64,000 nucleotides of DNA from Auanema rhodensis (GCA_964057225.1 OZ059900.1:10726001-10790000); one strand, 5' to 3'. Numbered from the stretch's first letter, positions 1,576 through 39,041 are shown. Numbers and translations are program-made. The notes: generated by a model from the letters alone, not told the origin.

Positions 1576-1992
1576 TGTTACATACATATCTCAAAGGAAA
1601 GCAGCTGACCATGGCAGCTGCTATTATTAAACTAATGCAGATAGTTTTTAAGCAATTCTGAGAATATTCTAGATGCACTTTTTATAAGCTTTGTAACAAT
1701 TTGTGTAAACTGAGTAGGAGTTGTATGGATATATAAACCTGAGTCCTCAAGACTCAGGCATCTCATTATCTCATTATCTTACTTTCTCTTTATCTTCTTT
1801 ATATTCTCTTTCTTAACTCTAGCTTTAATCTTTGTATAATTATATTATAATGCGAACAATAAACCTTTATATATTTCATCTCTTGTTTCTTATTTCACCT
1901 TACATTACACACTTATATTTAAAATCATACTCATCTTCTCATAGTCTGTTTGGATCTCTCAACTTGGAACCATTGAGAATCTAAATGGAACG
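1576..1992 (+). repeat. 5' LTR of gypsy copy 1
   Basis: Direct repeat of 13468-13884. TATATAAA at 1730-1737 and AATAAA at 1858-1863. Confidence 0.93.
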
Positions 1993-2010
1993 TGGAGGTT
2001 CCGCCGAGAT
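1993..2010 (+). promoter_or_regulatory. Primer-binding site, tRNA-Gln
   Basis: TGGAGGTTCCGCCGAGAT (ACC variant at 25768 and 27662) is complementary to the metazoan tRNA-Gln 3' end ...ATCTCGGTGGAACCT-CCA as I recall it. The G variant can still pair G:U. Confidence 0.85.
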
Positions 2011-3239
2011 CCTTCCTTTTGGACAGGATCTCGTAAAGGAACTCAAGCGCTACCGTCTACATCTCTTATTCAATTAAAAATCTTATCTCTCTCTTAAAGT
2101 TAGCTTATAATATTTTCTTAAAAACTCTAAAACTTTTCTATTAAAAATTATATCCAAAAACTCTTTACAAAAACTCAGTTTTCCATTCATTATATTCTCA
2201 TAAAATTATTCATAAGAGTACTTATATCATTTATCATTCTCTCTATCCAAAATCCTATATACGAAAATTATTCAAATTCAATAATTAACTTTTCTAAGAA
2301 TTATAAGTTTATTTTCACATTTTTTGAACAAAAATAGTTAAGTTCTTTATAAAATTAATTTAGAATTAAGAAATAAAAAAAAAGAATATTGCTTCTATAC
2401 CTCTCAATCTTAATCATCTTATCATATTATCTGAATCTTCATCTTATCATACTATTTAATCATCCTATCATACCATATTTTCATTATTTTCTTTATGTTC
2501 GTTTATAAAACTATTATTCTTATACTACTACACTGTATTCTCATAAACCCACCCCTTCCCCCCCCGCCGTTATTTCATAAGCAAGAAATCCCGTGTTAAA
2601 CACGACAGTAAAAATATTTATTAGGCGCAGCGTATCCAAATTCCGATTACCTTAGCACCTGAAAATACGAAAAATAATTAAATTAATCAATAAGTTTTAA
2701 CTCATACGCAAAAACCATCTCCCCCCTCGTTAAGAATAATGCCAGACACTCAAGAGACTCGAGCGGAGGCCGACACTCAGGATAAGACGTACGCCCCATG
2801 AAATAATGAGAGAATTTTTGAATTGAAATCTGCCCCACATTGAGATAAATAATAAGAGTGGTCTCGCCATCATAGAGTCAGGGAGCAGGATGCAGAAGGC
2901 AGCTGACATACCTGTGACTCAGATAGGTTAATGAGGTCTGGGAAAATGAAATGATTGCGAAAATTCTGTTTTGTATCCTTGTCCCAAAAGACTGGCGAAC
3001 TATTAACTTTCATTTCATGCCTTTTTCACAATATAGAACTTGTCCCTTCGAAAAGGCACACTAGTTTCAAACCTGTGTTAGACCCGGACGAGCTATATTG
3101 GTAAAGAGATTACTTGCAAGACTAGCTACCTTCATAAGAATCGCGCACACAAACCCAACATTATTCTTTACGTTTTTCAATATATAAAATTATTTTGGCA
3201 CACGTTGGATATAACAAATTTCCTTACAGGATACCAACG

Positions 3240-6200
3240 ATGCTGCCCAATACTGGTCCAAAACCTCCGCTGGACCCTGCTGCCACTTCAAATATTATAA
3301 GAAGAAAAAGACAACCGCCCGCAACATATTCTCCCCCCTCTGCAAAACAAGCGAAGTTAAGCATTAAAACAAAGTCAATGGTAATACATACCCCAAGACA
3401 TCGCGGCATTCAAAAACAATTCACCAATCCCAAATCACATGAAAAAACGAAGAAACAAAAAACAGACATAGTCGAAAGAAACACCTTAGAAAAGAAAATT
3501 ATCCCAAACATTAATCCTATTCCTAAAAACATAGCAAGCAAAGGGAACCCTCAAAACCCCCCAACCAACACCATACCAAATACAATCAACCCAATCAATC
3601 GTTTAATAGCCACCCCTAGAAGAAGCAATACACCAACCACACAAAAATCACCTACGCCCGCACTTTCTTCAACCACACCCGCAGTAAGCTCATCGCCACC
3701 TCTACGAAACTCACCTTCATCCATTGATCATTCTACATCTGGGCATTCTCTATCTCCGTCTCTTCCATCGCAAACTAATCAAGCAAATACTTTTGTTGCA
3801 GAAAACAAGAGAATTAACCCAAGAATGGACCCAATGGACGAAGGCGCACCACTTACGCAAACCTCGGGAAGGGCACCTGTTCCAACACCTACAATCATCC
3901 CTCAACCAGCAGCGATTCCGTCCGCCATACGCGATATAAAAGCTCCACGCTACGATGGAAAAACACCATTCAACCGCTATCTACTATACCTAGATGAACA
4001 CTTCAACGCTACAAGAACAACTATGCCCGAACGTCTTCAAAGCATACAATTATTGCTAGAAGATGATCGAGCAAGAGAAGCGTACAGAAAACTCACAACC
4101 GAAGATAAGCGACTTGGATGGGACCATGTCAAGAAGCGACTCTCAGAAATGATCACACCGAAAAAACAGAGAGAACGAGCAATGCACCGCCTACATGGCT
4201 TGAAACAGTTACCAACGGAATCGGTACAAAGCTTTGCAACAAGATGTTCTAACGAAGCCTACTCGGCTATGGACATGAACAACGAAAGTGAGCTTAACAT
4301 GCTCCGATCCACCTTCACTTGGGGACTAAGACCCGAAATAAGCGAACATGTTAGCCGTCTAGACCCACCAAACTTTGAGGAAGCTTACGAAATGGCCTTA
4401 CGAGAAGAACTCTTTATACAAAATAGACCAACATCGTTTGTCAACAATATAGAGAAGTCGTTCAACAACCTCAACATTCGAGACTCGAAGGACAACAATC
4501 AATACCAGAGAAACGAATCTAAGGATTTCAAAGGAACCAAACCGATGTATAATGGCAATGGCAAACCACACAACCGATATCCGGACAGATACAACAACCA
4601 ATATCGGCCTCATCAACACCAATACAGGAACCATAACTCACGATTCTCTCAAAATAAGGGATCAAGACAAAACTACTTCGACAGATCACGAAACAGAAGC
4701 CAAGAAAGACCATACTATCGAAACCGCGACCAAAACTATAGCGGACACAACAACCGGCGACAATCAAATAATCACGAACAATACCCCTCACAATACAATC
4801 GAAGCCAATACAACAATTATAGAAGTCGCCCGCGCAGCACCTCCAATGGACCGGAACGGTATAGAGAACGCACACAGAGCCCAGGAGTACGTTTTCAAGT
4901 CAACAACGTCACGGAAAACGAAGTACCGAACAACAAAAGAAAATCAACACCATTCCTACCCCTCTTTATCACAATTATCGCACTCATTATAAACACATGC
5001 AGTGCAGAAACAACGTACCAGCTATGCACAGGAAACAGAGGAGGAATATATGTTGAGCCGCCATCGCCAACAGCTTGCCGATCCATCGCACCAACTAATA
5101 ACCATATCCAGAAGACTACAGCAGAATTGTTCATCCAAAACCTACAACCAAAAGAATGGGAAGCATGGAAATGTGCAATTGAAACTTACCAGCTTTGCAT
5201 TCACGACGTTTTCTTCATCAGAGAAACTAATGTCTCACTAGCAAAAGTTTCACCAACAACACTGCAAGAATGTACGTCAGCTATTAAAGAAAGAATATTC
5301 AACGGTACCAACCTTCAAAGAGAAGCACCAGGACTCTATGGAACTCCATTCCCAGAGACAACCATTACTAATGGTATATGGAAACAGGAATGCGAACAAC
5401 GTACCAGATTCATAGCTGAACGAGGACACATGACCAGCCTACAAGACAATACAGTACTCTCAGATATATTCATAAACGACAACGGATGCACCAGTGACAA
5501 AGGACAATGCCTAACCAACAACGCTCTCATCATATGGACCCCACCATCAGAAAAACATAGTTGCTCGTACACTTCATTAGGCTCTCACGAAGTTTTTATA
5601 TCAGAAGACACCATATTGATTCCCGGAATTCAAAGTGCTTTTATTCTAAACAATAAAACACCGGAAAAAGAAGCCTCCTCATGCTTACAAAAAGAGATAT
5701 TTACTACAAATAGCGGAACTCTAATCTCCTTCAACTCAACCTCAAGCTTAGGACGATCAAGAAGACACGCAATCACGGAATACCCTAAAGGATTCTTGAC
5801 AGTTCATCAATACCCCTCGCTAAGATATTCAGCCAGCAAAACCGGAACTATTCTACTATATACAACCTATATTCAACGGAAAAGACTTGACATCCATTAC
5901 AATCTCAATAACATAACAAATATGTTACCTAAGTATATCGCAATCTTCAAATACCTAGGTATAAATTTTGATGTTATTAAAAATCGTCTTATATGGCACA
6001 AATATGAAGACGTCAACATAGCCATTCTACACGCCCTAGGAGAAGCAGAAATAAGAGAAGCAACAAAAATCGCGATCGATAATCTATCGTATAAGGAACT
6101 TACGCAAAAACTTAGCAAACGGATCACAATTAAGGATTTTAAGAAAATACTACCAACCAAAACAGGAGACTACTATGAAATCGCGAAAGAAATTGCTTAC

Positions 6201-9200
6201 TCACTTGCGGAAATACCTACTACATTAGCTACAGGAGAAACAACACCATCTTTAGAAGAATACTTATATCAACTTATGCCACCAAGAAAACCAAAACTCA
6301 CCAAGACACGAAACGATTTAGAACTGTACGAACAACTAGCACAAGCAAAAATTATCCTGAACGCAATAAATAATCCGAAGAAGCTACATTCAAAAGAAGA
6401 ATACGAAGCAGAAATGAAGAAATGGATCAAATATGAAAAAGAACTGAACTTACCACCATTACAACTGCCAAACTACACAGTTATCTTCGATGGCGACGAT
6501 ATATTCTACGGCTTCCGGAAAAGAAATCCTACAAATTATAGCATTACACAAGAGGATAGTGAAAAATTTTATAATCATTATCTACCCCTTATCAGTACTC
6601 CCGGAACACGACCTTTTGCAACCACAATTAGAAGCACTTCGACCCCCCTACAAACTACTACTACAACCACTACCACGACCCCTAAGCCTACAACCATAAG
6701 GAACGTCATCACTTCGACAATCACACCCAAAACACATATATCCGAAACAACTAGACCCAAACCAACAATACCCACGTCTTCATCAACTACTACTACTACT
6801 ACCACTACTACTACTACTACTTCTACTACTGCTAGACCCAGATCAACAACAACCACAACACCTACAACAACCACAACTATATTCACCACTCATCGACCAA
6901 CACAATCATTCTCCACCCCCCAATCTACATTCAATATTACTACAAACCCAATCACAATCACCTCAAGCCAGGAATACAATAGGAAAGAATCACTCACCAA
7001 GTCACCGCCTCCAAGAACTACAAAAAGATCTATCACTACCACTCGCAGCACACCTGAAGAAATATCATCACATATCGGTAAGAAAGCTCACGTAGACTAC
7101 CTTAAAGCTAAGAACGATATCGTCCAAAAATGGAATGAACATCTTCATCAACAAGAAACGCAATCTCATCTACAATATGCCACTACCAATCTGGAAGATG
7201 ATATCATACGTACGTTCACAACAAACAGAAACAACATCTGCCACGTACAAAATAAACAACTAATTACCTGGTGGGCTATTCTTCAAATAAATCCTACTAT
7301 AGGGATGCGTACAATGCTACGACGACAGGATATATCTGCAAGATTCATAAATGATAAACTAATTTATGTAATGCCATGCACACCAATTCAAATTACAAAA
7401 ACATACCGCGATCACAAAGTCAACAGCACGTGTTTTCTGGAAACCCCAGTCGAAACGGAACATCACGGCCAACTGTTCATCCTACCAGGTACAAGAGACC
7501 TCACACCGATGGCACATGCCATACCTTGCGGACTCACAATCAAGGATCCCTGGAAAGAAAACGATCAATGGACTAATAATAACCAATCAATAAATGTAAC
7601 ATCACCAGCATACATCGACGAGTTAGGATCAATCAACCTAGAACATATCAAGTTTAATGGAAGCAACATTTTCAACAACCTAACAGAATCAACGTTTCCT
7701 ATGGCACTAGCAATATCATATGGATCCAGCTTAGCAACGCTACAGGCTACTTTACCAGGAAGAATAAAACCTGTAATCAAACAAAGATTAATTCCTAACA
7801 TGAACCCTGTTACCCTAACAGCAGGAGCAGCCAGCAGCTTACTACTCAGCTACGAACATACAAAAGAAGCTATAACTAGGAAAATGTTTGACTTTCTGTC
7901 ACCAATATGGGAAAAGATTCAAACCTGGACACTACGCGTACTTGCTATCATTGGATCAATCATCATAACAATTGGCATAATCACACTCGCCACCTGGATA
8001 ATAAAAATATACGCATGTAGTTCAAGGATGCCCATCAACAATGTCAAATGGGAAGCAGAATACTTACAACCACTATCAACTGAGAACACAAGAACAGAAA
8101 CATCTCATCCTTCTCCGTCCGCTCCATACGTCGACAACCATCACAACAGCTGTCAACTCACATTGTATGATCCTTCAGCACCAATTCCTGAACACATTTA
8201 TGAAGCTTATTTCCCTACAAACATGAAGAAAGAAAACATAAACTACATAGGAGGATCACAATTACCGTTTGTCCCGATTTCAATCCACAATCACATCTTT
8301 AAGGCACTATGGGACACGGGAGCATCAGCATCATACATGCGAGAATCCACCTTCAAACAACTGCCCGCTGCAACGATGGTACTAAAACAAACAACAGCGA
8401 TAGTCGCGAATAAATCTAAATTCTCATTTATGGGATACACAAGGATCCTCATAACAATAGGAACAACAGAAACAGAACACAAATTTTATGTAGCAGAAGA
8501 TAACTACTGTCCAGCACCAGTGTTACTTGGAATAGACTTCATGGAAGCATTACATCAACAAGGAATTTACACCTCACTTCGACCGCTGGATAAAACAATT
8601 GTTATCGGCACAACACATGTTCCACTAGCACGAGAAACATCTCCGTGGGAACACCAGACCACGAAAGCATATGTGGTTAGCTTAGAAAACAAAACGCTAA
8701 GACCAGGAGAAACAAGAACGCTCACGCTAGAAGTACACGATCCAGAAAGCTATGAACAGGCGTTTCTAGATTGTAAGAAACCAGGCAACAAACTCTCTTT
8801 CACGCCTACTATATTTACGCCAACTGGATACGGAGTACAAATTTACGCGACGAATATATGCAAACAGCCACTCGAAATTCAAATGAATCAAGAAATAGGG
8901 ATAGCAGAAGCGATACCAAAGGACAACCAAGAAAAATACGAAGGACAATACATACCTCTGGAAGCTCGATGGGAAGAGCAACTGCCATATTTTCCAGACA
9001 ATTTCATCAATGAGCTTGACCTTTCAGAAGCCTGCTTCTCACAAATCGAACAACAGCAACTGAAAGAAATAATTTTACTACATAAACAAGCGTTTCTCAA
9101 CGAAGATAGAAATATCGGACTCTTCCTAGGACCAATTGAACACTCCATTCCAATCATGCCAGGAAAAACACCATCATTCAAAATTACTTATCGTATACCA

Positions 9201-12200
9201 CTCTCCCAACAAGAAGAAGTGGAGAAACAAATAGAAGAAATGCTACAACAAAGAATCATTGAACCATCAAACTCAATGACAACTAGTCCAGTAATTTTGG
9301 TGAAGAAGAAAGACAAAACTTATAGATTTGTAACGGACTTTCGAGCTCTGAATGCAATCACTCAGAAACAAGTATATGTCATATCAAACATACAGGACAT
9401 CCTAGATTTGGCCGCTGGAGCAAGGATCTTCAGCAACTTTGATTTAGTATCTGGATTTTTCCAAATACCTCTTAAGAAAGAAGATCGTCATCTTACAGCT
9501 TTCACAACAACAAGTGGAACTTATCAATATTGTCGAATGCCGATGGGATTATGTGGATCACCCCATACTTTTCAAAACGCAGTACGATACCTGCAATCAA
9601 TGGTTAAATGCAAGCTATTCGTATATCTAGATGATTTACTGTTAATCTCTGAATCTACGACAGCACATTTAAAAGATATTGAAGAAGTTTTGGAAGCAGT
9701 AACTCAAATAGGATTCAAAATAAAACTGAAGAAATGCGCATTCGCAAGAAAGGAAGTAAAATTTCTAGGATACATAGTTGGACAAGAAGGAATTAAACCG
9801 GACCCACATAAAATTAAGGCAATACAAGATTATCCCCAACCAAAATCAACAACAGGAGTAAGAGCTTTCATGGGAGTAGTAAACTACTTCAGAAGGTTCA
9901 TAAAGAACGCTGCAGGAATAGCAACACCGCTCTACAACCTCACTCGGAAAGACACTCCGTTCAAATGGACAGAAGAAGAAGAAATTGCTTTTAATACTTT
10001 GAAGAAAACATTGACTCAAGCACCTGTGTTACAAGCACCAATCCCGAAGCGACCATATGTTATTGAAAGTGATGGAAGTATGATAGCAGTTGGCGCTGTA
10101 CTACTTCAAGCGAAAGACGATCAAGAACCATTACATCCAATAGCTTTTGCTAGTCGGAAACTCAACAAAGCCGAAAGGAATTATCCACCAATAGAAGTAG
10201 AAGCATTAGCTCTTACATTCGCCGTCAAACAATTTCGCACCTACATACTAGGAACAGCAACCAAAATTATCACGGACCATAGACCACTCACTAGTTTAAT
10301 GACTAGAAAGGATTTAATAGGTCGTTTAGCAAAATTTCAAATTGTTTTACAAGAATACGATATTGAAATTATCTACAGACCAGGAAAATTAAACAGTGTA
10401 TGTGACGCATTATCACGATATTTTGAAGATGAAATCAACGAAGCAAAACCACCAGCAAAGAAGAAAAACGAAAGAAAAACGACGGAAGATACTATTCATC
10501 AGATAAACACCTTCACGATAGCAGATATTCGATCAGTTCAGAATCAATCAAATTGGATAAAAGAAACTATGGATAAAATAAAGAATAATACAGCTGGACG
10601 ACAACTGACGGACAGATATATAGTGTACAACGATGTACTATACTCAAAACCAAAAAGAAGCCTACAAGTACCACGAACAATTTTACCACGAGAAGAGCAC
10701 ATAATTAATCCAATTATGAAGAAATTTCATGAAGATCCGACACTCGGAGCTCATCTAGGAATAAACAAAACAATGGACTCAATATCAAAACGATTTACAT
10801 GGACTGGAATGCAAGAAGACATTACAAACTACATCAACAGATGTCTTGCTTGTGCGAAAAGAAAGAACAACCCTCACGAAGCAACGGTGGAACCAATGAA
10901 AAATTTTCCAACATCAACAAAACCATGGCAAAGAGTACACATGGATATACTCGGACCATTACCTAGGACAGAACAAGAAAACAGATATGTTCTTTCAATT
11001 CAAGATTCTTTTTCAAAATGGATAATCGCAATTCCGCTAATCAGACAAACATCAGAAGAAATTATATCAGCTATCGAAAAATATCTCTTCTATGTTTTTG
11101 GACCACCTGTCACTATCATCACAGACAATGGATCTAATTTTATTTCAAACGATTTCACCACTATGTGCAGTAATTTTGGAACTACACACCACACTACTAT
11201 GCCGTATTACAAAAACGCTAACGGACAAGTAGAAAGATTACATCGGACGATCGAAGAAGCATTAACAGCCTACGTTAATGACGAACAAAACGATTGGGAT
11301 AAGATACTTCCGAAGATTATTTTTACACTCAACAGATTACCAAACGCCACCACTAAAACATCACCATACGAATGTTTGTTTGGACAAGTAGCACGTCTAC
11401 CCATTGACAAAAACTTGGAAACACCGGAAGAACAAAATATCACGGATCAGCTCAAAAACTTAAGAGATATTCAAGAAAAAGTCAAGGAAAAGATTGCCAC
11501 CAATGAAGAAAGAATGAAGCAGAAATACGATCAAACACATAGGACAAAAGAAAGAATATTAGATATAGGAGATCGAGTATTTGTACAAAGAGCGAACCCA
11601 AGCAACAAATTACAAATACGAAGAGATGGACCATACCGGATAGTGACAATTGAAGGAAACAACATCAGCATAACGGATCAAGATGGAAATATTATAAAAG
11701 CTCACAAAAATAACATACGTTATTTTCCACCAGACGATAATCTTATATCAACAAGAAATAATGAAGAAGAGGAAGAAGAAGACCAAGACATAGCAAACGA
11801 AGAAGAAGAAGAAGAAGAAGCAAGTTGGAATAATCTGGATGAATGGGAACAAACCAATAATACGGAAAATAACAACAACTGTTACCCAACAGGCAGTCCA
11901 GATACTCTCGCGCAACTGTTACCTATCACAGGGAATAACAGAGGAGTAAACGAAGAAGAAATTGAACATAATTCAGAAACACCTGACGACCTTGCTACAG
12001 CAAGAAGAATAACAAATTCTAATATACAATTAGAAGATGAATCAACAACAATCGACAGAATTCAAGAGGACCTCAGACAGCTGACACCTTTCTCTCAAGA
12101 AGAAGGTTCTAATCAAAACGATATAGAAGATAATAACGCGAAAACATACGAAAAGCTACGAGATCAATTCAAGAATGAAAACAGAAAGGAGCTATTTGAG

Positions 12201-12440
12201 GACAGAAACAGAAACTCACCAGCAATCAAAAATTGGAACACTACACTTGCCGCAGCACTAGGAATAGGAAATGAAAACTCACGCCCGTATCATGTTAAAC
12301 TACAACCCAAAAGAAAAACACAAGACGAAGAAATCAGAAATAATGGAGAATTGGAACTACATGGAAAAGCGGATCAAAGCAAAAAGCAGCAGAATAAATC
12401 TCCAACGCAAAACAAAGGAGAACAAGTACGAAACTTTTAA
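3240..12440 (+). CDS. Gag-Env(gB-like)-PR-RT-RNaseH-IN polyprotein, ~3066 aa from the first ATG (frame open from 3195)
   Basis: Gag CA motifs (APRYDGK; LKQLPTESVQSFATR). Internal signal peptide ~4950-5006. Cys-rich ectodomain. TM 7938-8003. Protease DTG at 8313, RT YLDD at 9624, RNase H ESDGS...EALAL...TDH. IN H-H-CLAC, HMD/TDNG/VER, GPY at 11628. Acidic C-tail. Confidence 0.93.
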   Translation: MLPNTGPKPPLDPAATSNIIRRKRQPPATYSPPSAKQAKLSIKTKSMVIHTPRHRGIQKQFTNPKSHEKTKKQKTDIVERNTLEKKIIPNINPIPKNIASKGNPQNPPTNTIPNTINPINRLIATPRRSNTPTTQKSPTPALSSTTPAVSSSPPLRNSPSSIDHSTSGHSLSPSLPSQTNQANTFVAENKRINPRMDPMDEGAPLTQTSGRAPVPTPTIIPQPAAIPSAIRDIKAPRYDGKTPFNRYLLYLDEHFNATRTTMPERLQSIQLLLEDDRAREAYRKLTTEDKRLGWDHVKKRLSEMITPKKQRERAMHRLHGLKQLPTESVQSFATRCSNEAYSAMDMNNESELNMLRSTFTWGLRPEISEHVSRLDPPNFEEAYEMALREELFIQNRPTSFVNNIEKSFNNLNIRDSKDNNQYQRNESKDFKGTKPMYNGNGKPHNRYPDRYNNQYRPHQHQYRNHNSRFSQNKGSRQNYFDRSRNRSQERPYYRNRDQNYSGHNNRRQSNNHEQYPSQYNRSQYNNYRSRPRSTSNGPERYRERTQSPGVRFQVNNVTENEVPNNKRKSTPFLPLFITIIALIINTCSAETTYQLCTGNRGGIYVEPPSPTACRSIAPTNNHIQKTTAELFIQNLQPKEWEAWKCAIETYQLCIHDVFFIRETNVSLAKVSPTTLQECTSAIKERIFNGTNLQREAPGLYGTPFPETTITNGIWKQECEQRTRFIAERGHMTSLQDNTVLSDIFINDNGCTSDKGQCLTNNALIIWTPPSEKHSCSYTSLGSHEVFISEDTILIPGIQSAFILNNKTPEKEASSCLQKEIFTTNSGTLISFNSTSSLGRSRRHAITEYPKGFLTVHQYPSLRYSASKTGTILLYTTYIQRKRLDIHYNLNNITNMLPKYIAIFKYLGINFDVIKNRLIWHKYEDVNIAILHALGEAEIREATKIAIDNLSYKELTQKLSKRITIKDFKKILPTKTGDYYEIAKEIAYSLAEIPTTLATGETTPSLEEYLYQLMPPRKPKLTKTRNDLELYEQLAQAKIILNAINNPKKLHSKEEYEAEMKKWIKYEKELNLPPLQLPNYTVIFDGDDIFYGFRKRNPTNYSITQEDSEKFYNHYLPLISTPGTRPFATTIRSTSTPLQTTTTTTTTTPKPTTIRNVITSTITPKTHISETTRPKPTIPTSSSTTTTTTTTTTTTSTTARPRSTTTTTPTTTTTIFTTHRPTQSFSTPQSTFNITTNPITITSSQEYNRKESLTKSPPPRTTKRSITTTRSTPEEISSHIGKKAHVDYLKAKNDIVQKWNEHLHQQETQSHLQYATTNLEDDIIRTFTTNRNNICHVQNKQLITWWAILQINPTIGMRTMLRRQDISARFINDKLIYVMPCTPIQITKTYRDHKVNSTCFLETPVETEHHGQLFILPGTRDLTPMAHAIPCGLTIKDPWKENDQWTNNNQSINVTSPAYIDELGSINLEHIKFNGSNIFNNLTESTFPMALAISYGSSLATLQATLPGRIKPVIKQRLIPNMNPVTLTAGAASSLLLSYEHTKEAITRKMFDFLSPIWEKIQTWTLRVLAIIGSIIITIGIITLATWIIKIYACSSRMPINNVKWEAEYLQPLSTENTRTETSHPSPSAPYVDNHHNSCQLTLYDPSAPIPEHIYEAYFPTNMKKENINYIGGSQLPFVPISIHNHIFKALWDTGASASYMRESTFKQLPAATMVLKQTTAIVANKSKFSFMGYTRILITIGTTETEHKFYVAEDNYCPAPVLLGIDFMEALHQQGIYTSLRPLDKTIVIGTTHVPLARETSPWEHQTTKAYVVSLENKTLRPGETRTLTLEVHDPESYEQAFLDCKKPGNKLSFTPTIFTPTGYGVQIYATNICKQPLEIQMNQEIGIAEAIPKDNQEKYEGQYIPLEARWEEQLPYFPDNFINELDLSEACFSQIEQQQLKEIILLHKQAFLNEDRNIGLFLGPIEHSIPIMPGKTPSFKITYRIPLSQQEEVEKQIEEMLQQRIIEPSNSMTTSPVILVKKKDKTYRFVTDFRALNAITQKQVYVISNIQDILDLAAGARIFSNFDLVSGFFQIPLKKEDRHLTAFTTTSGTYQYCRMPMGLCGSPHTFQNAVRYLQSMVKCKLFVYLDDLLLISESTTAHLKDIEEVLEAVTQIGFKIKLKKCAFARKEVKFLGYIVGQEGIKPDPHKIKAIQDYPQPKSTTGVRAFMGVVNYFRRFIKNAAGIATPLYNLTRKDTPFKWTEEEEIAFNTLKKTLTQAPVLQAPIPKRPYVIESDGSMIAVGAVLLQAKDDQEPLHPIAFASRKLNKAERNYPPIEVEALALTFAVKQFRTYILGTATKIITDHRPLTSLMTRKDLIGRLAKFQIVLQEYDIEIIYRPGKLNSVCDALSRYFEDEINEAKPPAKKKNERKTTEDTIHQINTFTIADIRSVQNQSNWIKETMDKIKNNTAGRQLTDRYIVYNDVLYSKPKRSLQVPRTILPREEHIINPIMKKFHEDPTLGAHLGINKTMDSISKRFTWTGMQEDITNYINRCLACAKRKNNPHEATVEPMKNFPTSTKPWQRVHMDILGPLPRTEQENRYVLSIQDSFSKWIIAIPLIRQTSEEIISAIEKYLFYVFGPPVTIITDNGSNFISNDFTTMCSNFGTTHHTTMPYYKNANGQVERLHRTIEEALTAYVNDEQNDWDKILPKIIFTLNRLPNATTKTSPYECLFGQVARLPIDKNLETPEEQNITDQLKNLRDIQEKVKEKIATNEERMKQKYDQTHRTKERILDIGDRVFVQRANPSNKLQIRRDGPYRIVTIEGNNISITDQDGNIIKAHKNNIRYFPPDDNLISTRNNEEEEEEDQDIANEEEEEEEASWNNLDEWEQTNNTENNNNCYPTGSPDTLAQLLPITGNNRGVNEEEIEHNSETPDDLATARRITNSNIQLEDESTTIDRIQEDLRQLTPFSQEEGSNQNDIEDNNAKTYEKLRDQFKNENRKELFEDRNRNSPAIKNWNTTLAAALGIGNENSRPYHVKLQPKRKTQDEEIRNNGELELHGKADQSKKQQNKSPTQNKGEQVRNF
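4950..8003 (+). other. Envelope glycoprotein domain, herpesvirus gB-like class III fusogen, embedded between Gag and protease
   Basis: PFLPLFITIIALIINTCSA|ETTYQLC signal. LQY...CHVQNKQLITWWAILQINP...ISARFINDKLIYVMPC...CFLETPV...AIPC resembles by eye gB LQF...[20 protein letters not shown]...VSARMLGDVMAVSTC...CYSRPLV...IEPC. Furin site RSRR, many NxS/T sequons, C-terminal TM. Confidence 0.78.
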
Positions 12441-12640
12441 TTAGCTAACAAAAATCGTAGAATTGTAAAAATAATTTTTCTTTCTTTCGTATAGTACATT
12501 AAACATAAGACATAGATCAAAAACCACCGAAATTCTAATTTCTATCCTTTAATTTTAACAAATTGTAACAATCACTGAAAAACAAACTATATAAAGAGAA
12601 AATTTTGATAGAGAAAAATTCAAAAACATTTTTACTCAAA

Positions 12641-13285
12641 ATGACCTCCTCTCTCGCCAACGTCACACTCTCTACATTCCTCGCAACTCCAACACCACTG
12701 GTCCCTCTAGCGACCACTATTGAGCAAGAATGGATAGAGGTAGAAAACCTTCGCGAAGGTCTTCTACCTATCAACTGCATGAAGCCGAACTTAGGACCAA
12801 TAATAAGCCTCCAAACGAGCAAATTGGAAAAGAAGACACAGCACATCCTATTTATGATGGAACTATTGGAGGAGAAAACCAAAAACTATAAGGAACACGA
12901 TCTGAAGGAGCTTCGCCAGCATCAAAAGAAATGGACAGAAGGATGTTCTCTCAGCCAGAAAGAGAACAGAATCCGAAACATAATGCTGGGACAACCCGCC
13001 AGAACGCAGACCACAGCTGACATCTACAAAGCAATGCCGACGTGGACAACACAGATGACACAACAAGCTGTAGGAAATAGCGGAACCAAAGAAGAAGCAT
13101 CGTGGATAGAGATAGGGCAAGACCTATCAGTAGTAATCGAAAAACTACTGACAAAAAGGACTACCAACACGTCCGCATCAAAAAGTAAGGCAAAAGCAGT
13201 TAGCCAAACCATCAGAACAATGGAGCTGCTTGGACTAGCATCAATGACGGAAATGATCCAGGAAATTGACCAACTGGCGGATTAA
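12641..13285 (+). CDS. Accessory ORF2, 214 aa, unknown function
   Basis: ATG at 12641 in AAAATG context. Intact in all three full copies. No TM or signal peptide; looks helical. Confidence 0.7.
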   Translation: MTSSLANVTLSTFLATPTPLVPLATTIEQEWIEVENLREGLLPINCMKPNLGPIISLQTSKLEKKTQHILFMMELLEEKTKNYKEHDLKELRQHQKKWTEGCSLSQKENRIRNIMLGQPARTQTTADIYKAMPTWTTQMTQQAVGNSGTKEEASWIEIGQDLSVVIEKLLTKRTTNTSASKSKAKAVSQTIRTMELLGLASMTEMIQEIDQLAD

Positions 13286-13467
13286 AGAAGAGAGGAAAGG
13301 TTTAAATCATTTATAAAATTCTATCTCTTAAAAAAATTTTTCTCTTTATCAATAGTTTGTTGAAAAATTTGCTTTATCTCATGCCATTTTATTTTTTTTT
13401 ATTTTTCTCTCTTAATTATTATTTGCATATAACAGCTGAGGTCAGCTGACTTGTATCCGTTGGGGCA

Positions 13468-13884
13468 TGTTACATACATATCTCAAAGGAAAGCAGCTGA
13501 CCATGGCAGCTGCTATTATTAAACTAATGCAGATAGTTTTTAAGCAATTCTGAGAATATTCTAGATGCACTTTTTATAAGCTTTGTAACAATTTGTGTAA
13601 ACTGAGTAGGAGTTGTATGGATATATAAACCTGAGTCCTCAAGACTCAGGCATCTCATTATCTCATTATCTTACTTTCTCTTTATCTTCTTTATATTCTC
13701 TTTCTTAACTCTAGCTTTAATCTTTGTATAATTATATTATAATGCGAACAATAAACCTTTATATATTTCATCTCTTGTTTCTTATTTCACCTTACATTAC
13801 ACACTTATATTTAAAATCATACTCATCTTCTCATAGTCTGTTTGGATCTCTCAACTTGGAACCATTGAGAATCTAAATGGAACG
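13468..13884 (+). repeat. Shared LTR (3' LTR of copy 1 = 5' LTR of copy 2)
   Basis: Preceded by the 3' internal end (...gttggggca) and followed by the PBS at 13885. Confidence 0.93.
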
Positions 13885-15130: not shown

Positions 15131-18100
15131 ATGCTGCCCAATACTGGTCCAAAACCTCCGCTGGACCCTGCTGCCACTTCAAATATTATAAGAAGAAAAA
15201 GACAACCGCCCGCAACATATTCTCCCCCCTCTGCAAAACAAGCGAAGTTAAGCATTAAAACAAAGTCAATGGTAATACATACCCCAAGACATCGCGGCAT
15301 TCAAAAACAATTCACCAATCCCAAATCACATGAAAAAACGAAGAAACAAAAAACAGACATAGTCGAAAGAAACACCTTAGAAAAGAAAATTATCCCAAAC
15401 ATTAATCCTATTCCTAAAAACATAGCAAGCAAAGGGAACCCTCAAAACCCCCCAACCAACACCATACCAAATACAATCAACCCAATCAATCCTTTAATAG
15501 CCACCCCTAGAAGAAGCAATACACCAACCACACAAAAATCACCTACGCCCGCACTTTCTTCAACCACACCCGCAGTAAGCTCATCGCCACCTCTACGAAA
15601 CTCACCTTCATCCATTGATCATTCTACATCTGGGCATTCTCTATCTCCGTCTCTTCCATCGCAAACTAATCAAGCAAATACTTTTGTTGCAGAAAACAAG
15701 AGAATTAACCCAAGAATGGACCCAATGGACGAAGGCGCACCACTTACGCAAACCTCGGGAAGGGCACCTGTTCCAACACCTACAATCATCCCTCAACCAG
15801 CAGCGATTCCGTCCGCCATACGCGATATAAAAGCTCCACGCTACGATGGAAAAACACCATTCAACCGCTATCTACTATACCTAGATGAACACTTCAACGC
15901 TACAAGAACAACTATGCCCGAACGTCTTCAAAGCATACAATTATTGCTAGAAGATGATCGAGCAAGAGAAGCGTACAGAAAACTCACAACCGAAGATAAG
16001 CGACTTGGATGGGACCATGTCAAGAAGCGACTCTCAGAAATGATCACACCGAAAAAACAGAGAGAACGAGCAATGCACCGCCTACATGGCTTGAAACAGT
16101 TACCAACGGAATCGGTACAAAGCTTTGCAACAAGATGTTCTAACGAAGCCTACTCGGCTATGGACATGAACAACGAAAGTGAGCTTAACATGCTCCGATC
16201 CACCTTCACTTGGGGACTAAGACCCGAAATAAGCGAACATGTTAGCCGTCTAGACCCACCAAACTTTGAGGAAGCTTACGAAATGGCCTTACGAGAAGAA
16301 CTCTTTATACAAAATAGACCAACATCGTTTGTCAACAATATAGAGAAGTCGTTCAACAACCTCAACATTCGAGACTCGAAGGACAACAATCAATACCAGA
16401 GAAACGAATCTAAGGATTTCAAAGGAACCAAACCGATGTATAATGGCAATGGCAAACCACACAACCGATATCCGGACAGATACAACAACCAATATCGGCC
16501 TCATCAACACCAATACAGGAACCATAACTCACGATTCTCTCAAAATAAGGGATCAAGACAAAACTACTTCGACAGATCACGAAACAGAAGCCAAGAAAGA
16601 CCATACTATCGAAACCGCGACCAAAACTATAGCGGACACAACAACCGGCGACAATCAAATAATCACGAACAATACCCCTCACAATACAATCGAAGCCAAT
16701 ACAACAATTATAGAAGTCGCCCGCGCAGCACCTCCAATGGACCGGAACGGTATAGAGAACGCACACAGAGCCCAGGAGTACGTTTTCAAGTCAACAACGT
16801 CACGGAAAACGAAGTACCGAACAACAAAAGAAAATCAACACCATTCCTACCCCTCTTTATCACAATTATCGCACTCATTATAAACACATGCAGTGCAGAA
16901 ACAACGTACCAGCTATGCACAGGAAACAGAGGAGGAATATATGTTGAGCCGCCATCGCCAACAGCTTGCCGATCCATCGCACCAACTAATAACCATATCC
17001 AGAAGACTACAGCAGAATTGTTCATCCAAAACCTACAACCAAAAGAATGGGAAGCATGGAAATGTGCAATTGAAACTTACCAGCTTTGCATTCACGACGT
17101 TTTCTTCATCAGAGAAACTAATGTCTCACTAGCAAAAGTTTCACCAACAACACTGCAAGAATGTACGTCAGCTATTAAAGAAAGAATATTCAACGGTACC
17201 AACCTTCAAAGAGAAGCACCAGGACTCTATGGAACTCCATTCCCAGAGACAACCATTACTAATGGTATATGGAAACAGGAATGCGAACAACGTACCAGAT
17301 TCATAGCTGAACGAGGACACATGACCAGCCTACAAGACAATACAGTACTCTCAGATATATTCATAAACGACAACGGATGCACCAGTGACAAAGGACAATG
17401 CCTAACCAACAACGCTCTCATCATATGGACCCCACCATCAGAAAAACATAGTTGCTCGTACACTTCATTAGGCTCTCACAAAGTTTTTATATCAGAAGAC
17501 ACCATATTGATTCCCGGAATTCAAAGTGCTTTTATTCTAAACAATAAAACACCGGAAAAAGAAGCCTCCTCATGCTTACAAAAAGAGATATTTACTACAA
17601 ATAGCGGAACTCTAATCTCCTTCAACTCAACCTCAAGCTTAGGACGATCAAGAAGACACGCAATCACGGAATACCCTAAAGGATTCTTGACAGTTCATCA
17701 ATACCCCTCGCTAAGATATTCAGCCAGCAAAACCGGAACTATTCTACTATATACAACCTATATTCAACGGAAAAGACTTGACATCCATTACAATCTCAAT
17801 AACATAACAAATATGTTACCTAAGTATATCGCAATCTTCAAATACCTAGGTATAAATTTTGATGTTATTAAAAATCGTCTTATATGGCACAAATATGAAG
17901 ACGTCAACATAGCCATTCTACACGCCCTAGGAGAAGCAGAAATAAGAGAAGCAACAAAAATCGCGATCGATAATCTATCGTATAAGGAACTTACGCAAAA
18001 ACTTAGCAAACGGATCACAATTAAGGATTTTAAGAAAATACTACCAACCAAAACAGGAGACTACTATGAAATCGCGAAAGAAATTGCTTACTCACTTGCG

Positions 18101-21100
18101 GAAATACCTACTACATTAGCTACAGGAGAAACAACACCATCTTTAGAAGAATACTTATATCAACTTATGCCACCAAGAAAACCAAAACTCACCAAGACAC
18201 GAAACGATTTAGAACTGTACGAACAACTAGCACAAGCAAAAATTATCCTGAACGCAATAAATAATCCGAAGAAGCTACATTCAAAAGAAGAATACGAAGC
18301 AGAAATGAAGAAATGGATCAAATATGAAAAAGAACTGAACTTACCACCATTACAACTGCCAAACTACACAGTTATCTTCGATGGCGACGATATATTCTAC
18401 GGCTTCCGGAAAAGAAATCCTACAAATTATAGCATTACACAAGAGGATAGTGAAAAATTTTATAATCATTATCTACCCCTTATCAGTACTCCCGGAACAC
18501 GACCTTTTGCAACCACAATTAGAAGCACTTCGACCCCCCTACAAACTACTACTACAACCACTACCACGACCCCTAAGCCTACAACCATAAGGAACGTCAT
18601 CACTTCGACAATCACACCCAAAACACATATATCCGAAACAACTAGACCCAAACCAACAATACCCACGTCTTCATCAACTACTACTACTACTACCACTACT
18701 ACTACTACTACTTCTACTACTGCTAGACCCAGATCAACAACAACCACAACACCTACAACAACCACAACTATATTCACCACTCATCGACCAACACAATCAT
18801 TCTCCACCCCCCAATCTACATTCAATATTACTACAAACCCAATCACAATCACCTCAAGCCAGGAATACAATAGGAAAGAATCACTCACCAAGTCACCGCC
18901 TCCAAGAACTACAAAAAGATCTATCACTACCACTCGCAGCACACCTGAAGAAATATCATCACATATCGGTAAGAAAGCTCACGTAGACTACCTTAAAGCT
19001 AAGAACGATATCGTCCAAAAATGGAATGAACATCTTCATCAACAAGAAACGCAATCTCATCTACAATATGCCACTACCAATCTGGAAGATGATATCATAC
19101 GTACGTTCACAACAAACAGAAACAACATCTGCCACGTACAAAATAAACAACTAATTACCTGGTGGGCTATTCTTCAAATAAATCCTACTATAGGGATGCG
19201 TACAATGCTACGACGACAGGATATATCTGCAAGATTCATAAATGATAAACTAATTTATGTAATGCCATGCACACCAATTCAAATTACAAAAACATACCGC
19301 GATCACAAAGTCAACAGCACGTGTTTTCTGGAAACCCCAGTCGAAACGGAACATCACGGCCAACTGTTCATCCTACCAGGTACAAGAGACCTCACACCGA
19401 TGGCACATGCCATACCTTGCGGACTCACAATCAAGGATCCCTGGAAAGAAAACGATCAATGGACTAATAATAACCAATCAATAAATGTAACATCACCAGC
19501 ATACATCGACGAGTTAGGATCAATCAACCTAGAACATATCAAGTTTAATGGAAGCAACATTTTCAACAACCTAACAGAATCAACGTTTCCTATGGCACTA
19601 GCAATATCATATGGATCCAGCTTAGCAACGCTACAGGCTACTTTACCAGGAAGAATAAAACCTGTAATCAAACAAAGATTAATTCCTAACATGAACCCTG
19701 TTACCCTAACAGCAGGAGCAGCCAGCAGCTTACTACTCAGCTACGAACATACAAAAGAAGCTATAACTAGGAAAATGTTTGACTTTCTGTCACCAATATG
19801 GGAAAAGATTCAAACCTGGACACTACGCGTACTTGCTATCATTGGATCAATCATCATAACAATTGGCATAATCACACTCGCCACCTGGATAATAAAAATA
19901 TACGCATGTAGTTCAAGGATGCCCATCAACAATGTCAAATGGGAAGCAGAATACTTACAACCACTATCAACTGAGAACACAAGAACAGAAACATCTCATC
20001 CTTCTCCGTCCGCTCCATACGTCGACAACCATCACAACAGCTGTCAACTCACATTGTATGATCCTTCAGCACCAATTCCTGAACACATTTATGAAGCTTA
20101 TTTCCCTACAAACATGAAGAAAGAAAACATAAACTACATAGGAGGATCACAATTACCGTTTGTCCCGATTTCAATCCACAATCACATCTTTAAGGCACTA
20201 TGGGACACGGGAGCATCAGCATCATACATGCGAGAATCCACCTTCAAACAACTGCCCGCTGCAACGATGGTACTAAAACAAACAACAGCGATAGTCGCGA
20301 ATAAATCTAAATTCTCATTTATGGGATACACAAGGATCCTCATAACAATAGGAACAACAGAAACAGAACACAAATTTTATGTAGCAGAAGATAACTACTG
20401 TCCAGCACCAGTGTTACTTGGAATAGACTTCATGGAAGCATTACATCAACAAGGAATTTACACCTCACTTCGACCGCTGGATAAAACAATTGTTATCGGC
20501 ACAACACATGTTCCACTAGCACGAGAAACATCTCCGTGGGAACACCAGACCACGAAAGCATATGTGGTTAGCTTAGAAAACAAAACGCTAAGACCAGGAG
20601 AAACAAGAACGCTCACGCTAGAAGTACACGATCCAGAAAGCTATGAACAGGCGTTTCTAGATTGTAAGAAACCAGGCAACAAACTCTCTTTCACGCCTAC
20701 TATATTTACGCCAACTGGATACGGAGTACAAATTTACGCGACGAATATATGCAAACAGCCACTCGAAATTCAAATGAATCAAGAAATAGGGATAGCAGAA
20801 GCGATACCAAAGGACAACCAAGAAAAATACGAAGGACAATACATACCTCTGGAAGCTCGATGGGAAGAGCAACTGCCATATTTTCCAGACAATTTCATCA
20901 ATGAGCTTGACCTTTCAGAAGCCTGCTTCTCACAAATCGAACAACAGCAACTGAAAGAAATAATTTTACTACATAAACAAGCGTTTCTCAACGAAGATAG
21001 AAATATCGGACTCTTCCTAGGACCAATTGAACACTCCATTCCAATCATGCCAGGAAAAACACCATCATTCAAAATTACTTATCGTATACCACTCTCCCAA

Positions 21101-24100
21101 CAAGAAGAAGTGGAGAAACAAATAGAAGAAATGCTACAACAAAGAATCATTGAACCATCAAACTCAATGACAACTAGTCCAGTAATTTTGGTGAAGAAGA
21201 AAGACAAAACTTATAGATTTGTAACGGACTTTCGAGCTCTGAATGCAATCACTCAGAAACAAGTATATGTCATATCAAACATACAGGACATCCTAGATTT
21301 GGCCGCTGGAGCAAGGATCTTCAGCAACTTTGATTTAGTATCTGGATTTTTCCAAATACCTCTTAAGAAAGAAGATCGTCATCTTACAGCTTTCACAACA
21401 ACAAGTGGAACTTATCAATATTGTCGAATGCCGATGGGATTATGTGGATCACCCCATACTTTTCAAAACGCAGTACGATACCTGCAATCAATGGTTAAAT
21501 GCAAGCTATTCGTATATCTAGATGATTTACTGTTAATCTCTGAATCTACGACAGCACATTTAAAAGATATTGAAGAAGTTTTGGAAGCAGTAACTCAAAT
21601 AGGATTCAAAATAAAACTGAAGAAATGCGCATTCGCAAGAAAGGAAGTAAAATTTCTAGGATACATAGTTGGACAAGAAGGAATTAAACCGGACCCACAT
21701 AAAATTAAGGCAATACAAGATTATCCCCAACCAAAATCAACAACAGGAGTAAGAGCTTTCATGGGAGTAGTAAACTACTTCAGAAGGTTCATAAAGAACG
21801 CTGCAGGAATAGCAACACCGCTCTACAACCTCACTCGGAAAGACACTCCGTTCAAATGGACAGAAGAAGAAGAAATTGCTTTTAATACTTTGAAGAAAAC
21901 ATTGACTCAAGCACCTGTGTTACAAGCACCAATCCCGAAGCGACCATATGTTATTGAAAGTGATGGAAGTATGATAGCAGTTGGCGCTGTACTACTTCAA
22001 GCGAAAGACGATCAAGAACCATTACATCCAATAGCTTTTGCTAGTCGGAAACTCAACAAAGCCGAAAGGAATTATCCACCAATAGAAGTAGAAGCATTAG
22101 CTCTTACATTCGCCGTCAAACAATTTCGCACCTACATACTAGGAACAGCAACCAAAATTATCACGGACCATAGACCACTCACTAGTTTAATGACTAGAAA
22201 GGATTTAATAGGTCGTTTAGCAAAATTTCAAATTGTTTTACAAGAATACGATATTGAAATTATCTACAGACCAGGAAAATTAAACAGTGTATGTGACGCA
22301 TTATCACGATATTTTGAAGATGAAATCAACGAAGCAAAACCACCAGCAAAGAAGAAAAACGAAAGAAAAACGACGGAAGATACTATTCATCAGATAAACA
22401 CCTTCACGATAGCAGATATTCGATCAGTTCAGAATCAATCAAATTGGATAAAAGAAACTATGGATAAAATAAAGAATAATACAGCTGGACGACAACTGAC
22501 GGACAGATATATAGTGTACAACGATGTACTATACTCAAAACCAAAAAGAAGCCTACAAGTACCACGAACAATTTTACCACGAGAAGAGCACATAATTAAT
22601 CCAATTATGAAGAAATTTCATGAAGATCCGACACTCGGAGCTCATCTAGGAATAAACAAAACAATGGACTCAATATCAAAACGATTTACATGGACTGGAA
22701 TGCAAGAAGACATTACAAACTACATCAACAGATGTCTTGCTTGTGCGAAAAGAAAGAACAACCCTCACGAAGCAACGGTGGAACCAATGAAAAATTTTCC
22801 AACATCAACAAAACCATGGCAAAGAGTACACATGGATATACTCGGACCATTACCTAGGACAGAACAAGAAAACAGATATGTTCTTTCAATTCAAGATTCT
22901 TTTTCAAAATGGATAATCGCAATTCCGCTAATCAGACAAACATCAGAAGAAATTATATCAGCTATCGAAAAATATCTCTTCTATGTTTTTGGACCACCTG
23001 TCACTATCATCACAGACAATGGATCTAATTTTATTTCAAACGATTTCACCACTATGTGCAGTAATTTTGGAACTACACACCACACTACTATGCCGTATTA
23101 CAAAAACGCTAACGGACAAGTAGAAAGATTACATCGGACGATCGAAGAAGCATTAACAGCCTACGTTAATGACGAACAAAACGATTGGGATAAGATACTT
23201 CCGAAGATTATTTTTACACTCAACAGATTACCAAACGCCACCACTAAAACATCACCATACGAATGTTTGTTTGGACAAGTAGCACGTCTACCCATTGACA
23301 AAAACTTGGAAACACCGGAAGAACAAAATATCACGGATCAGCTCAAAAACTTAAGAGATATTCAAGAAAAAGTCAAGGAAAAGATTGCCACCAATGAAGA
23401 AAGAATGAAGCAGAAATACGATCAAACACATAGGACAAAAGAAAGAATATTAGATATAGGAGATCGAGTATTTGTACAAAGAGCGAACCCAAGCAACAAA
23501 TTACAAATACGAAGAGATGGACCATACCGGATAGTGACAATTGAAGGAAACAACATCAGCATAACGGATCAAGATGGAAATATTATAAAAGCTCACAAAA
23601 ATAACATACGTTATTTTCCACCAGACGATAATCTTATATCAACAAGAAATAATGAAGAAGAGGAAGAAGAAGACCAAGACATAGCAAACGAAGAAGAAGA
23701 AGAAGAAGAAGCAAGTTGGAATAATCTGGATGAATGGGAACAAACCAATAATACGGAAAATAACAACAACTGTTACCCAACAGGCAGTCCAGATACTCTC
23801 GCGCAACTGTTACCTATCACAGGGAATAACAGAGGAGTAAACGAAGAAGAAATTGAACATAATTCAGAAACACCTGACGACCTTGCTACAGCAAGAAGAA
23901 TAACAAATTCTAATATACAATTAGAAGATGAATCAACAACAATCGACAGAATTCAAGAGGACCTCAGACAGCTGACACCTTTCTCTCAAGAAGAAGGTTC
24001 TAATCAAAACGATATAGAAGATAATAACGCGAAAACATACGAAAAGCTACGAGATCAATTCAAGAATGAAAACAGAAAGGAGCTATTTGAGGACAGAAAC

Positions 24101-25358: not shown

Positions 25359-25767
25359 TGTTACATACATATCTCAAAGGAAAGCAGCTGACCATGGCAG
25401 CTGCTATTATTAAACTAATGCAGATAGTTTTTAAGCAATTCTGAGAATATTCTAGATGCACTTTTTATAAGCTTTGTAACAATTTGTGTAAACTGAGTAG
25501 GAGTTGTATGGATATATAAACCTGAGTCCTCAAGACTCAGGCATCTCATTATCTTACTTTCTCTTTATCTTCTTTATATTCTCTTTCTTAACTTTAGCTT
25601 TAATCTTTGTATAATTATATTATAATGCGAACAATAAACCTTTATATATTTCATCTTTTGTTTCTTATTTCACCTTACATTACACACTTATATTTGAAAT
25701 CATACTCATCGTCTCATAGTCTGTTTGGATATCTCAACTTGGAACCATTGAGAATCTAAATGGAACG
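25359..25767 (+). repeat. Variant LTR (409 bp) closing copy 2
   Basis: Lacks one TCTCATTA repeat and has several SNPs relative to the LTRs at 1576 and 13468. Followed by a PBS rather than a TSD. Confidence 0.9.
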
Positions 25768-26011: not shown

Positions 26012-26065
26012 TGTTGTCACAATAATTTCTTTGTTTAAGTAAGAGTATTCTTGGAAAAACCCTGT

Positions 26066-27139
26066 GATCAGGTGGCCGAGTGGTTAAGGCGATGGACTGC
26101 TAATCCATTGGGGTTTCCCCGCGTGAGTTCGAATCTCATCCTGATCGTTAGTTTTGTTTTTTATGACAACGGATGCTCCATTCAAACTATCATTTTCTAA
26201 ATAAAGCCAAGCCACCTGATTTAATAGGAAGACTATATTATTCATTTGTTGACGTTATTTATTCTCACAATAATTTCTTTGTTTATGTAAGAGTATTCTT
26301 GGAAAAACCCTGTGATCAGGTGGCCGAGTGGTTAAGGCGATGGACTGCTAATCCATTGGGGTTTCCCCGCGTGAGTTCGAATCTCATCCTGATCGTTAGT
26401 TTTGTTTTTTATGACAACGGATGCTCCATTCAAACTATCATTTTCTAAATAAAGCCAATCCACCTGATTTAATAGGAAGATTATATTATTCATTTGTTGA
26501 CGTTATTTATTCTCACAATAATTTCTTTGTTTATGTAAGAGTATTCTTGGAAAAACCCTGTGATCAGGTGGCCGAGTGGTTAAGGCGATGGACTGCTAAT
26601 CCATTGGGGTTTCCCCGCGTGAGTTCGAATCTCATCCTGATCGTTAGTTTTGTTTTTTATGACAACGGATGCTCCATTCAAACTATCATTTTCTAAATAA
26701 TGCCAAGCCATCTGATTTAATAGGAAGACTTTCTTATTTGTTTGCTGACGATATTTGTTGTCACAATAATTTCTTTGTTTAAGTAAGAGTATTCTTGGAA
26801 AAACCCTGTGATCAGGTGGCCGAGTGGTTAAGGCGATGGACTGCTAATCCATTGGGGTTTCCCCGCGTGAGTTCGAATCTCATCCTGATCGTTAGTTTTG
26901 TTTTTTATGACAACGGATGCTCCATTCAAACTATCATTTTCTAAATGAAGCCAAGCCACCTGATTTAACAGGAAGACTTTCTTATTTGTTTGTTGACGAT
27001 ATTTGTTGTCACAATAATTTCTTTGTTTAAGTAAGAGTTTTCTTGGAAAAACCCTGTGATCAGGTGGCCGAGTGGTTAAGGCGATGGACTGCTAATCCAT
27101 TGGGGTTTCCCCGCGTGAGTTCGAATCTCATCCTGATCG
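26066..27139 (+). tRNA. Five tandem tRNA-Ser(GCT) genes
   Basis: 82-nt genes start at 26066, 26314, 26562, 26810 and 27058. Each is followed by a TTTTGTTTTTT Pol III terminator. Confidence 0.95.
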
Positions 27140-38935: not shown

Positions 38936-39009
38936 AGAAGAGAGGAAAGGTTTAAATCATTTATAAAATTCTATCTCTTAAAATTTTTCTCTTTATCAAT
39001 AGTTTGTTG

Positions 39010-39041
<32 letters not shown>

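Follow-up and report, generated by a model that had tools for sequence, protein, structure and literature searches.

A Ty3/gypsy element of the published GAG-ENV-POL type with a predicted class III fusogen inside its single reading frame

The locus considered here lies in a window of 64,000 nucleotides, the whole stretch of DNA that was analysed. It raises the question of what kind of retroelement places an envelope region in frame between gag and pol, and of how the product of such a frame could be distributed across a membrane. We propose, with a probability of about 85%, that it is a recently active Ty3/gypsy LTR element of the already published GAG-ENV-POL type, likely from a nematode, in which the capsid, a predicted class III fusogen and the enzymes would be made from one ORF threaded through the endoplasmic reticulum (ER).

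One reading frame, its copies and their surroundings

The Gag-Env-Pol frame of copy A runs without a stop from its ATG at position 3240 to position 12440 of the plus strand and encodes 3066 aa. Copy B (15131-24331, plus strand), in tandem with copy A, and copy C (28904-38086, plus strand) are also open, with 99.9% and 98.9% amino acid identity to copy A, respectively, as the sequence-only reading had claimed for three copies. Copy E (58006/58007 to 64000, plus strand) is 5'-truncated and broken, has an internal deletion that leaves 162 aa of the integrase missing, and runs past the window end. Between copies A and C, 41 codon differences are synonymous and 27 non-synonymous (15 and 13 within env), where neutral change would be expected to give roughly three times more non-synonymous than synonymous differences.

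Pfam and a hydropathy scan (19-aa window, cut-off 1.6) agree on the order Gag, signal, ectodomain, transmembrane helix (TM), protease (PR), reverse transcriptase (RT), RNase H (RH) and integrase (IN), all on the plus strand, and env does lie in frame between gag and pol. Gag (3915-4949, by Pfam and motif inspection) consists of a capsid-like domain, with a Retrotrans_gag match at aa 275-364, and of an R/N/Q/Y-rich nucleocapsid-like stretch from which a CCHC knuckle is absent. An internal signal sequence (4950-5006), with basic residues upstream and a predicted signal-peptidase site at its end, precedes Env, and a predicted stop-transfer TM (7938-8003) follows it; these are the sole hydrophobic segments of the whole protein (best windows 4950-5006 and 7938-7994), where the earlier reading had placed them. 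Further downstream lie the aspartic protease (8262-8555; Pfam aa 1675-1772, DTG at aa 1692), RT and RNase H (9300-10358; Pfam aa 2021-2180 and 2243-2373, YLDD at aa 2129) and the integrase with HHCC, core and GPY module (10704-11720; Pfam aa 2489-2657), then an acidic tail without match up to 12440. The PR-RT-RH-IN order, with the catalytic motifs found, and the position of the RT among Caenorhabditis elements argue for a Ty3/gypsy identity. A dUTPase-like domain, suspected by eye between PR and RT, gave no Pfam match. After pol, a second ORF of 214 aa (ORF2, 12641-13285, plus strand) is kept in copies A, B and C and is without match in Pfam families, PDB sequences or the ESM Atlas. Sacco et al. 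(2022, J Gen Virol 103:1739) reportedly described nematode endogenous retroviruses in which gag, env, pro and pol form one continuous ORF, with an Env like that of nyamiviruses and one or more small extra ORFs after pol.

Copy A begins with a 417-bp LTR (1576-1992, plus strand) with TG...CG ends, a TATA near 1730 and a poly(A) signal at 1858, and shares an LTR identical to it (13468-13884, plus strand) with copy B, as the 3' LTR of the former and the 5' LTR of the latter. LTR identity is 417/417 in copy A and 416/417 in copy C, in keeping with the young copies envisaged from the sequence; the exception is the 3' LTR of B (25359-25767), of a different type and matching the shared LTR at 404/417 positions, which looks recombinant and is followed by a primer-binding site (PBS), a leader of ~230 bp and then a tRNA array. 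Since A and B stand in tandem with one shared LTR, the independent insertions are fewer than the ORFs. Copy C is complete (27245-39569, plus strand), has a 4-bp target duplication and lies 64 bp upstream of a tRNA-Ser gene. The ending in CG instead of the usual CA is backed by the copy C junction and by one loose end in an RNA-type run (X15). Directly adjoining the first LTR is a PBS of tRNA-Gln type (1993-2010, plus strand), and agreement with the last 12 nt given for two Caenorhabditis elements is 11/12 in A and B and 12/12 in C. A Gln primer is recorded in 8/36 Nematoda rows of supplementary file 1 of Chary and Hayashi (eLife 2026, PMC13524379), twice with the 12-mer of copy C.

The stretch is contained in 15 sequencing runs from four studies, eight of which were compared, as contigs, at 93% likeness: four DNA runs and four of RNA type, the latter a guessed type, all from one study and of low depth. 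The contigs carry no strand and show presence only. The tandem of A and B might be put down to a duplication in the assembly instead of two genomic copies, in that A and B differ by just 2 codons and have an identical common LTR, and no contig in the compared runs spans the whole stretch. We hold this to be unlikely: the terminal LTR of B is of a different type, as expected from recombination, and the same open layout is carried by copies C and E and by the four DNA runs, which makes the finding independent of the tandem.

The 248-bp "satellite" that surrounds the copies consists of 47 tRNA-Ser(GCT) genes arrayed in tandem, in segments at 832-1575, 26017-27249, 39569-45115 and 53220-58007, the three leftmost genes being inverted relative to the rest. 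Targeting of tRNA genes is unsupported: the junctions are upstream of tRNA genes, at distances of 116 bp and 64 bp, a BEL/Pao element inside a tRNA gene and a third LTR-like piece are also found in the array, and a general sink fits equally well. Our literature search retrieved nothing on point for retrotransposons in nematode tRNA arrays. The BEL/Pao neighbour (45116-53219) is intact and Atlas-like, with a stop-to-stop ORF of 2442 aa, LTRs identical at 400/400 positions and a C-terminal phlebovirus G2 domain (E 1e-46), and has inserted into a tRNA-Ser gene, with a duplication of 5 bp. The array is also split by a ~296-bp piece with short inverted termini (~55600-55895) that has the appearance of a solo LTR from a third family. 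At positions 1-830, a separate 199-bp satellite (~4 copies, 85% matches) adjoins the inverted tRNA genes. Loose ends with LTR-like letters at 4988 and 12978 in run X15 suggest that in that sample other copies carry nested insertions of this element or of a related one.

A predicted class III fusogen and its proposed membrane topology

The ectodomain had been described as Cys-rich, which is true of its two ends, with 10 cysteines in aa 590-845 and 4 in aa 1296-1560, and does not apply to the 450 aa between them, where there are none. Its N-terminal half (5007-5774, plus strand), which contains the first ten cysteines, is assigned to domains I and II of a class III protein and carries a furin-type site at 5754-5765. 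Between domains II and III this site is followed by a Cys-free inserted domain of ~280 aa (5775-6614, plus strand), predicted to be helical over ~200-280 aa with an all-helical core at aa 869-1069, and then by a mucin-like linker of ~170 aa (6615-7124, plus strand; 49% Ser+Thr), predicted to be disordered. The C-terminal half (7125-7919, plus strand) would hold a 72-residue central helix (domain III), domains IV and V and a membrane-proximal region. There are 14 N-glycosylation sequons in Env.

The assignment to class III is drawn from profiles and from a predicted model. The herpesvirus gB family PF00606 matches aa 1308-1386 at E 5.6e-5, under the Pfam curated cut-off. A HMMER search with Env gave 252 relatives, and a profile of 96 Env sequences (95 of the best 150 proteins, aligned with that of the window) matches herpes gB (E 3.6e-17) and rhabdovirus-type G (E 4.5e-6). 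The alignment-based model has a pLDDT of 69 and a pTM of 0.47, with 314/999 residues below pLDDT 50, mostly in linkers; a single-sequence fold (pLDDT 34) was discarded. With this model, Foldseek retrieved gB at E 1.4e-11 and mononegavirus glycoproteins at E 1.2e-16, the top two viral matches being Beihai rhabdo-like virus 3 and Nyavirus midwayense, with many class III proteins scoring close. The best fold match was prefusion HSV-1 gB (Z 11.4, rmsd 6.0, 383 aligned), and whole-model TM-scores are low, at 0.16-0.21 by query length. The eight-cysteine pattern of domains I-II resembles, by eye, the Nematoda C1 rows in the accessible material of PMC13524379. Taken together, the ectodomain is predicted to be a class III, herpes-gB-like fusogen.

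With ~446 aa, the Env insert is the second largest of 46 measured, the range in the 45 relatives being -2 to 482 aa. An insert of at least 40 aa is present in 31/46 Env, and 18 of those 31 also have a furin-type site. Over its full length the insert is matched only by two proteins (P0002 and P0004), and 11 others match ~45-90 aa near its start. The helical insert is without usable match in Pfam, PDB sequences or the ESM Atlas; the fold searches barely covered it and do not bear on the novelty of its fold.

To place these features in a membrane, 65 env-before-pol proteins were surveyed, that of the window included. A hydrophobic signal precedes Env in 34/37 scorable proteins and a TM follows it in 58/63, while the Gag side of the signal has a positive net charge in 27/37 and a negative one in 5; the proteins are related, and neither these counts nor those of the motif below are independent. 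The motif [IV]N-x-[IVLF] is present before the signal in 16/36 proteins (shuffle mean 1.8) and after the TM in 31/58 (shuffle mean 5.3). On the luminal side, taken as a control, it is weakly raised, at 12/58 (shuffle mean 7.1; 74/2000 shuffles reach 12). Within the protein of the window, 6/11 motif matches fall at domain borders (aa 401, 554, 1599, 1667, 1923 and 2422). We consider this [IV]N-x-hydrophobic motif a likely processing site of the element's own protease, and, if so, its occurrence on the cytosolic sides fits a signal-in/TM-out topology. The threading of Env through the ER that had been suggested from the sequence is well backed, by inference, by the conserved signal, TM and cytosolic-side motif.

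We propose that Gag is made in the cytosol and that the internal signal then carries Env into the ER, the signal staying on Gag as a membrane anchor after signal-peptidase cleavage. The TM would stop transfer and leave Pol hanging from the cytosolic tail of Env, and the element protease would release Gag, the Env tail, PR, RT and IN at the repeated [IV]N-x-hydrophobic motif. Host furin may cut Env ahead of the helical insert, which would remain joined to the membrane-anchored half via the mucin-like linker. Gag, Env and Pol would in this way be gathered on one membrane, with neither a frameshift nor a spliced env message, and Env trimers could possibly bring protease monomers together.

The same element might instead lead a purely intracellular life and form no infectious particle, Env being a membrane scaffold for Gag and Pol or a slowly decaying passenger. 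In its accessible text, PMC13524379 gives the transmission mechanism as unknown for most such elements and calls the entry of gB-type elements unknown. Two env-less proteins inside the nematode clade indicate that env can be lost, and the insert varies in size among relatives as given above. The class III architecture, the cysteine pattern, the sequons and the furin-type site are nevertheless all kept, and within env the A-C differences show no bias towards non-synonymous change; we regard an intracellular-only element as possible, though rather doubtful.

Spliced antisense RNA and the sense message

The proposed polyprotein would yield Gag, Env and Pol at 1:1:1 unless its message is spliced. 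A sense-strand joint removing env, which in dominant transcripts would by the sequence-only reading undermine its model, was looked for in the four RNA-type runs and is not among the 18 joints listed; env therefore does not seem to be spliced out of the presumed sense RNA. Sense splicing or early termination might nonetheless produce separate messages in other proportions, and it is general knowledge that most retroelements make Gag in excess; moreover, contigs drop rare forms, and three further joints exist beyond the 18 listed. Against such messages, which we hold to be quite improbable, there is no GT..AG joint among those 18, no TT[TC][CT]AG acceptor is present on the plus strand in gag or env, and one RNA-type contig covers 3248-6529 without a splice. 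Coverage of the PBS and leader is slight or nil in the RNA-type runs, a point to which we give no weight. All splice evidence is antisense and the contigs are strandless, so that the sense transcript is a presumed one.

On the minus strand, the RNA-type runs contain joints with CT..AC ends that define 13 antisense GT-AG introns of 41-1015 nt, including lengths of 41-74 nt, across env and pro (5142-9468). The joints number 13 in X12, 7 in X8, 5 in X14 and 3 in X15, and 0 in the four DNA runs. Twelve of the 13 recur in at least two runs, and three rest on 28 letters at one side. The donors fit the consensus, and 12/13 acceptors end in YAG. One X15 contig, with 26 loose letters, joins donor 8955 to acceptor 2659 in the non-coding leader across an intron of 6297 nt. 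This acceptor is of consensus nematode type and has a poly(A) signal 37 nt past it (2622), a layout kept in copies A, B and C, which points to 2600-2658 (minus strand) as the likely terminal exon of the antisense RNA. The region after pol (12441-13467, minus strand) has a further antisense acceptor of consensus type, with no joint to it among those listed. An antisense protein-coding gene was considered and rejected, since in 8192 intron subsets no stop-free stretch exceeds 123 aa and with the long intron the maximum is 89 aa, and the antisense RNA is likely non-coding.

This spliced non-coding RNA may well feed silencing of the element. According to the available text of PMC7264820, other LTR elements, e.g. 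Drosophila micropia, are known to make non-coding antisense RNAs driven by their LTRs, and the RNA described here resembles that of micropia in its lack of coding capacity and its overlap with the coding region. It differs from the micropia RNA, as presented there, in being heavily spliced, with 13 introns and a 6.3-kb skip over env and pro. No report of spliced antisense RNA in nematode LTR elements was found in the literature. Alternatively, the splicing may be incidental, arising by read-through from a host promoter at one copy and from cryptic sites on a U-rich minus strand, and have no role. The composition of the minus strand of the ORF, with 40% T and 34 GT[AG]AG donors as opposed to 5 on the plus strand, would favour this, as would the lack of coding capacity in the spliced product and the origin of all four RNA-type runs in one study at low depth. 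Conversely, the recurrence of the joints between runs, the contig leading to the conserved leader acceptor with its poly(A) signal, and the precedent cited from PMC7264820 speak for a regulator driven by the LTR. We see the balance between this regulator and cryptic splicing as close to even. An extended reading seems unlikely to us. In it, the element would have a brake of its own, namely a spliced, polyadenylated and non-coding antisense RNA that begins at or close to the 3' LTR, has more than 12 introns overprinting env and pro, finishes in a dedicated terminal exon within the leader and leads to small-RNA silencing of Gag-Env-Pol; the helical insert would moreover be an attachment domain grafted into the gB-like protein, turning it into a one-piece entry machine.

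Placement among known elements

The five best-scoring RT-RH matches are Caenorhabditis polyproteins with 59-63% identity that also have env Pfam domains. An RT-RH tree was built from the window and 125 of 267 proteins, chosen for having a near-complete RT and RH and with BEL/Pao left out, and an RT-only tree from 130 sequences, both with FastTree, midpoint-rooted and composed without named Metaviridae references. Among the 125 proteins, env lies before RT in 38, which confirms that relatives with the same order exist, after it in 9, and is absent from 78. The window nests among nematode env-before-RT elements, in a 9-tip clade made up entirely of them (support 0.999) in the RT-RH tree and in a 26-tip clade with P0001 (0.936) in the RT-only tree. 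Deeper nodes are weak (0.4-0.7), and the wider nematode clade includes the 2 env-less proteins. The Env of P0001 is that of the published Cbre_errantivirus_2 row, as matched by eye. Taken with the Atlas-like neighbour and the introns of 41-74 nt, the nearest named RTs point towards a nematode as the likely host. A word-index search with Env against longer proteins gave 0 matches among 3960 candidates, and a region search with the polyprotein 1 among 7971; a metagenome scan with RT-RH gave 14 loci at 26-43% identity, too distant for comparison of LTR, leader or splice sites.

The traits of other families are not found in this ORF. Env after the integrase, as in Belpaoviridae, is not seen, and Pao A17 and DUF5641 are absent from 3240-12440 and present in the neighbour at 45508-52836. 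A separate env 3' of pol, of F-type or class I, as in Drosophila-type errantiviruses and Retroviridae, is likewise lacking, and ORF2 after pol has no family match. As a separate observation, gB-like Env also follows BEL/Pao pol in 16 of the best 150 matches (P0026, P0030, P0049, P0113 and others), mostly lacking the insert, and follows Ty3/gypsy pol in 9/125 RT-RH proteins; with Env before pol, this amounts to at least three layouts.

Any novelty of the gene order that the earlier reading may have implied cannot be upheld. According to the available text of Chary and Hayashi (eLife 2026, PMC13524379), elements of Nematoda, Bryozoa and Platyhelminthes have only HSV/gB-type Env in the order GAG-ENV-POL, and Sacco et al. 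2022 are credited there with the nematode case. That text appears to include no antisense splicing or tRNA-array setting (no match to "splic") and no test of the orientation and processing of a Gag-Env-Pol polyprotein; the accessible part of bioRxiv 10.64898/2026.03.22.711591 adds nothing on Gag-Env-Pol order. By its sequence, the element is a new family within the published nematode GAG-ENV-POL gB-type Ty3/gypsy group (NERV, or gB-type "errantivirus"). The finding adds a family and not a category, the layout having been published; the details that are new here are the large Env insert and the antisense spliced RNA, to which the candidate processing motif adds interest. The large predicted helical insert could explain entry in the absence of herpes-type partner proteins, and the antisense spliced RNA could account for the restraint of such elements. 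With its young copies, its DNA and RNA-type runs in public archives, and a conserved candidate protease motif flanking Env cytosolically, the family makes a useful system.

In gene order, gB-type Env between signal and TM, Ty3/gypsy pol, LTRs and tRNA-Gln primer site, the element resembles the nematode elements of PMC13524379. It differs from its nematode GAG-ENV-POL relatives as a distinct family, with a best RT-RH identity of 63% among full-length matches, from most Env relatives measured in its ~446-aa insert, and from the nematode elements in the accessible text of PMC13524379 in its TG...CG LTR ends. The one-ORF 1:1:1 polyprotein with Env is not new either, being known from Atlas virus, an intact nematode element with a Gag-Pol-Env polyprotein (PMC9094657, available text). 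With Atlas virus and the related nematode belpaoviruses, as described in that text, our element has in common its intactness, identical LTRs, a single polyprotein and a captured viral fusogen, whereas Atlas virus has a BEL/Pao pol and a C-terminal Env of class II phlebovirus fold. Herpesvirus gB and mononegavirus G are comparable to the predicted Env in profile, fold, long central helix and a cleavage site between domains II and III, at 9-16% identity. Unlike gB and G, the Env described here is embedded in a retroelement polyprotein and carries a predicted helical insert and a mucin-like linker after its furin-type site.
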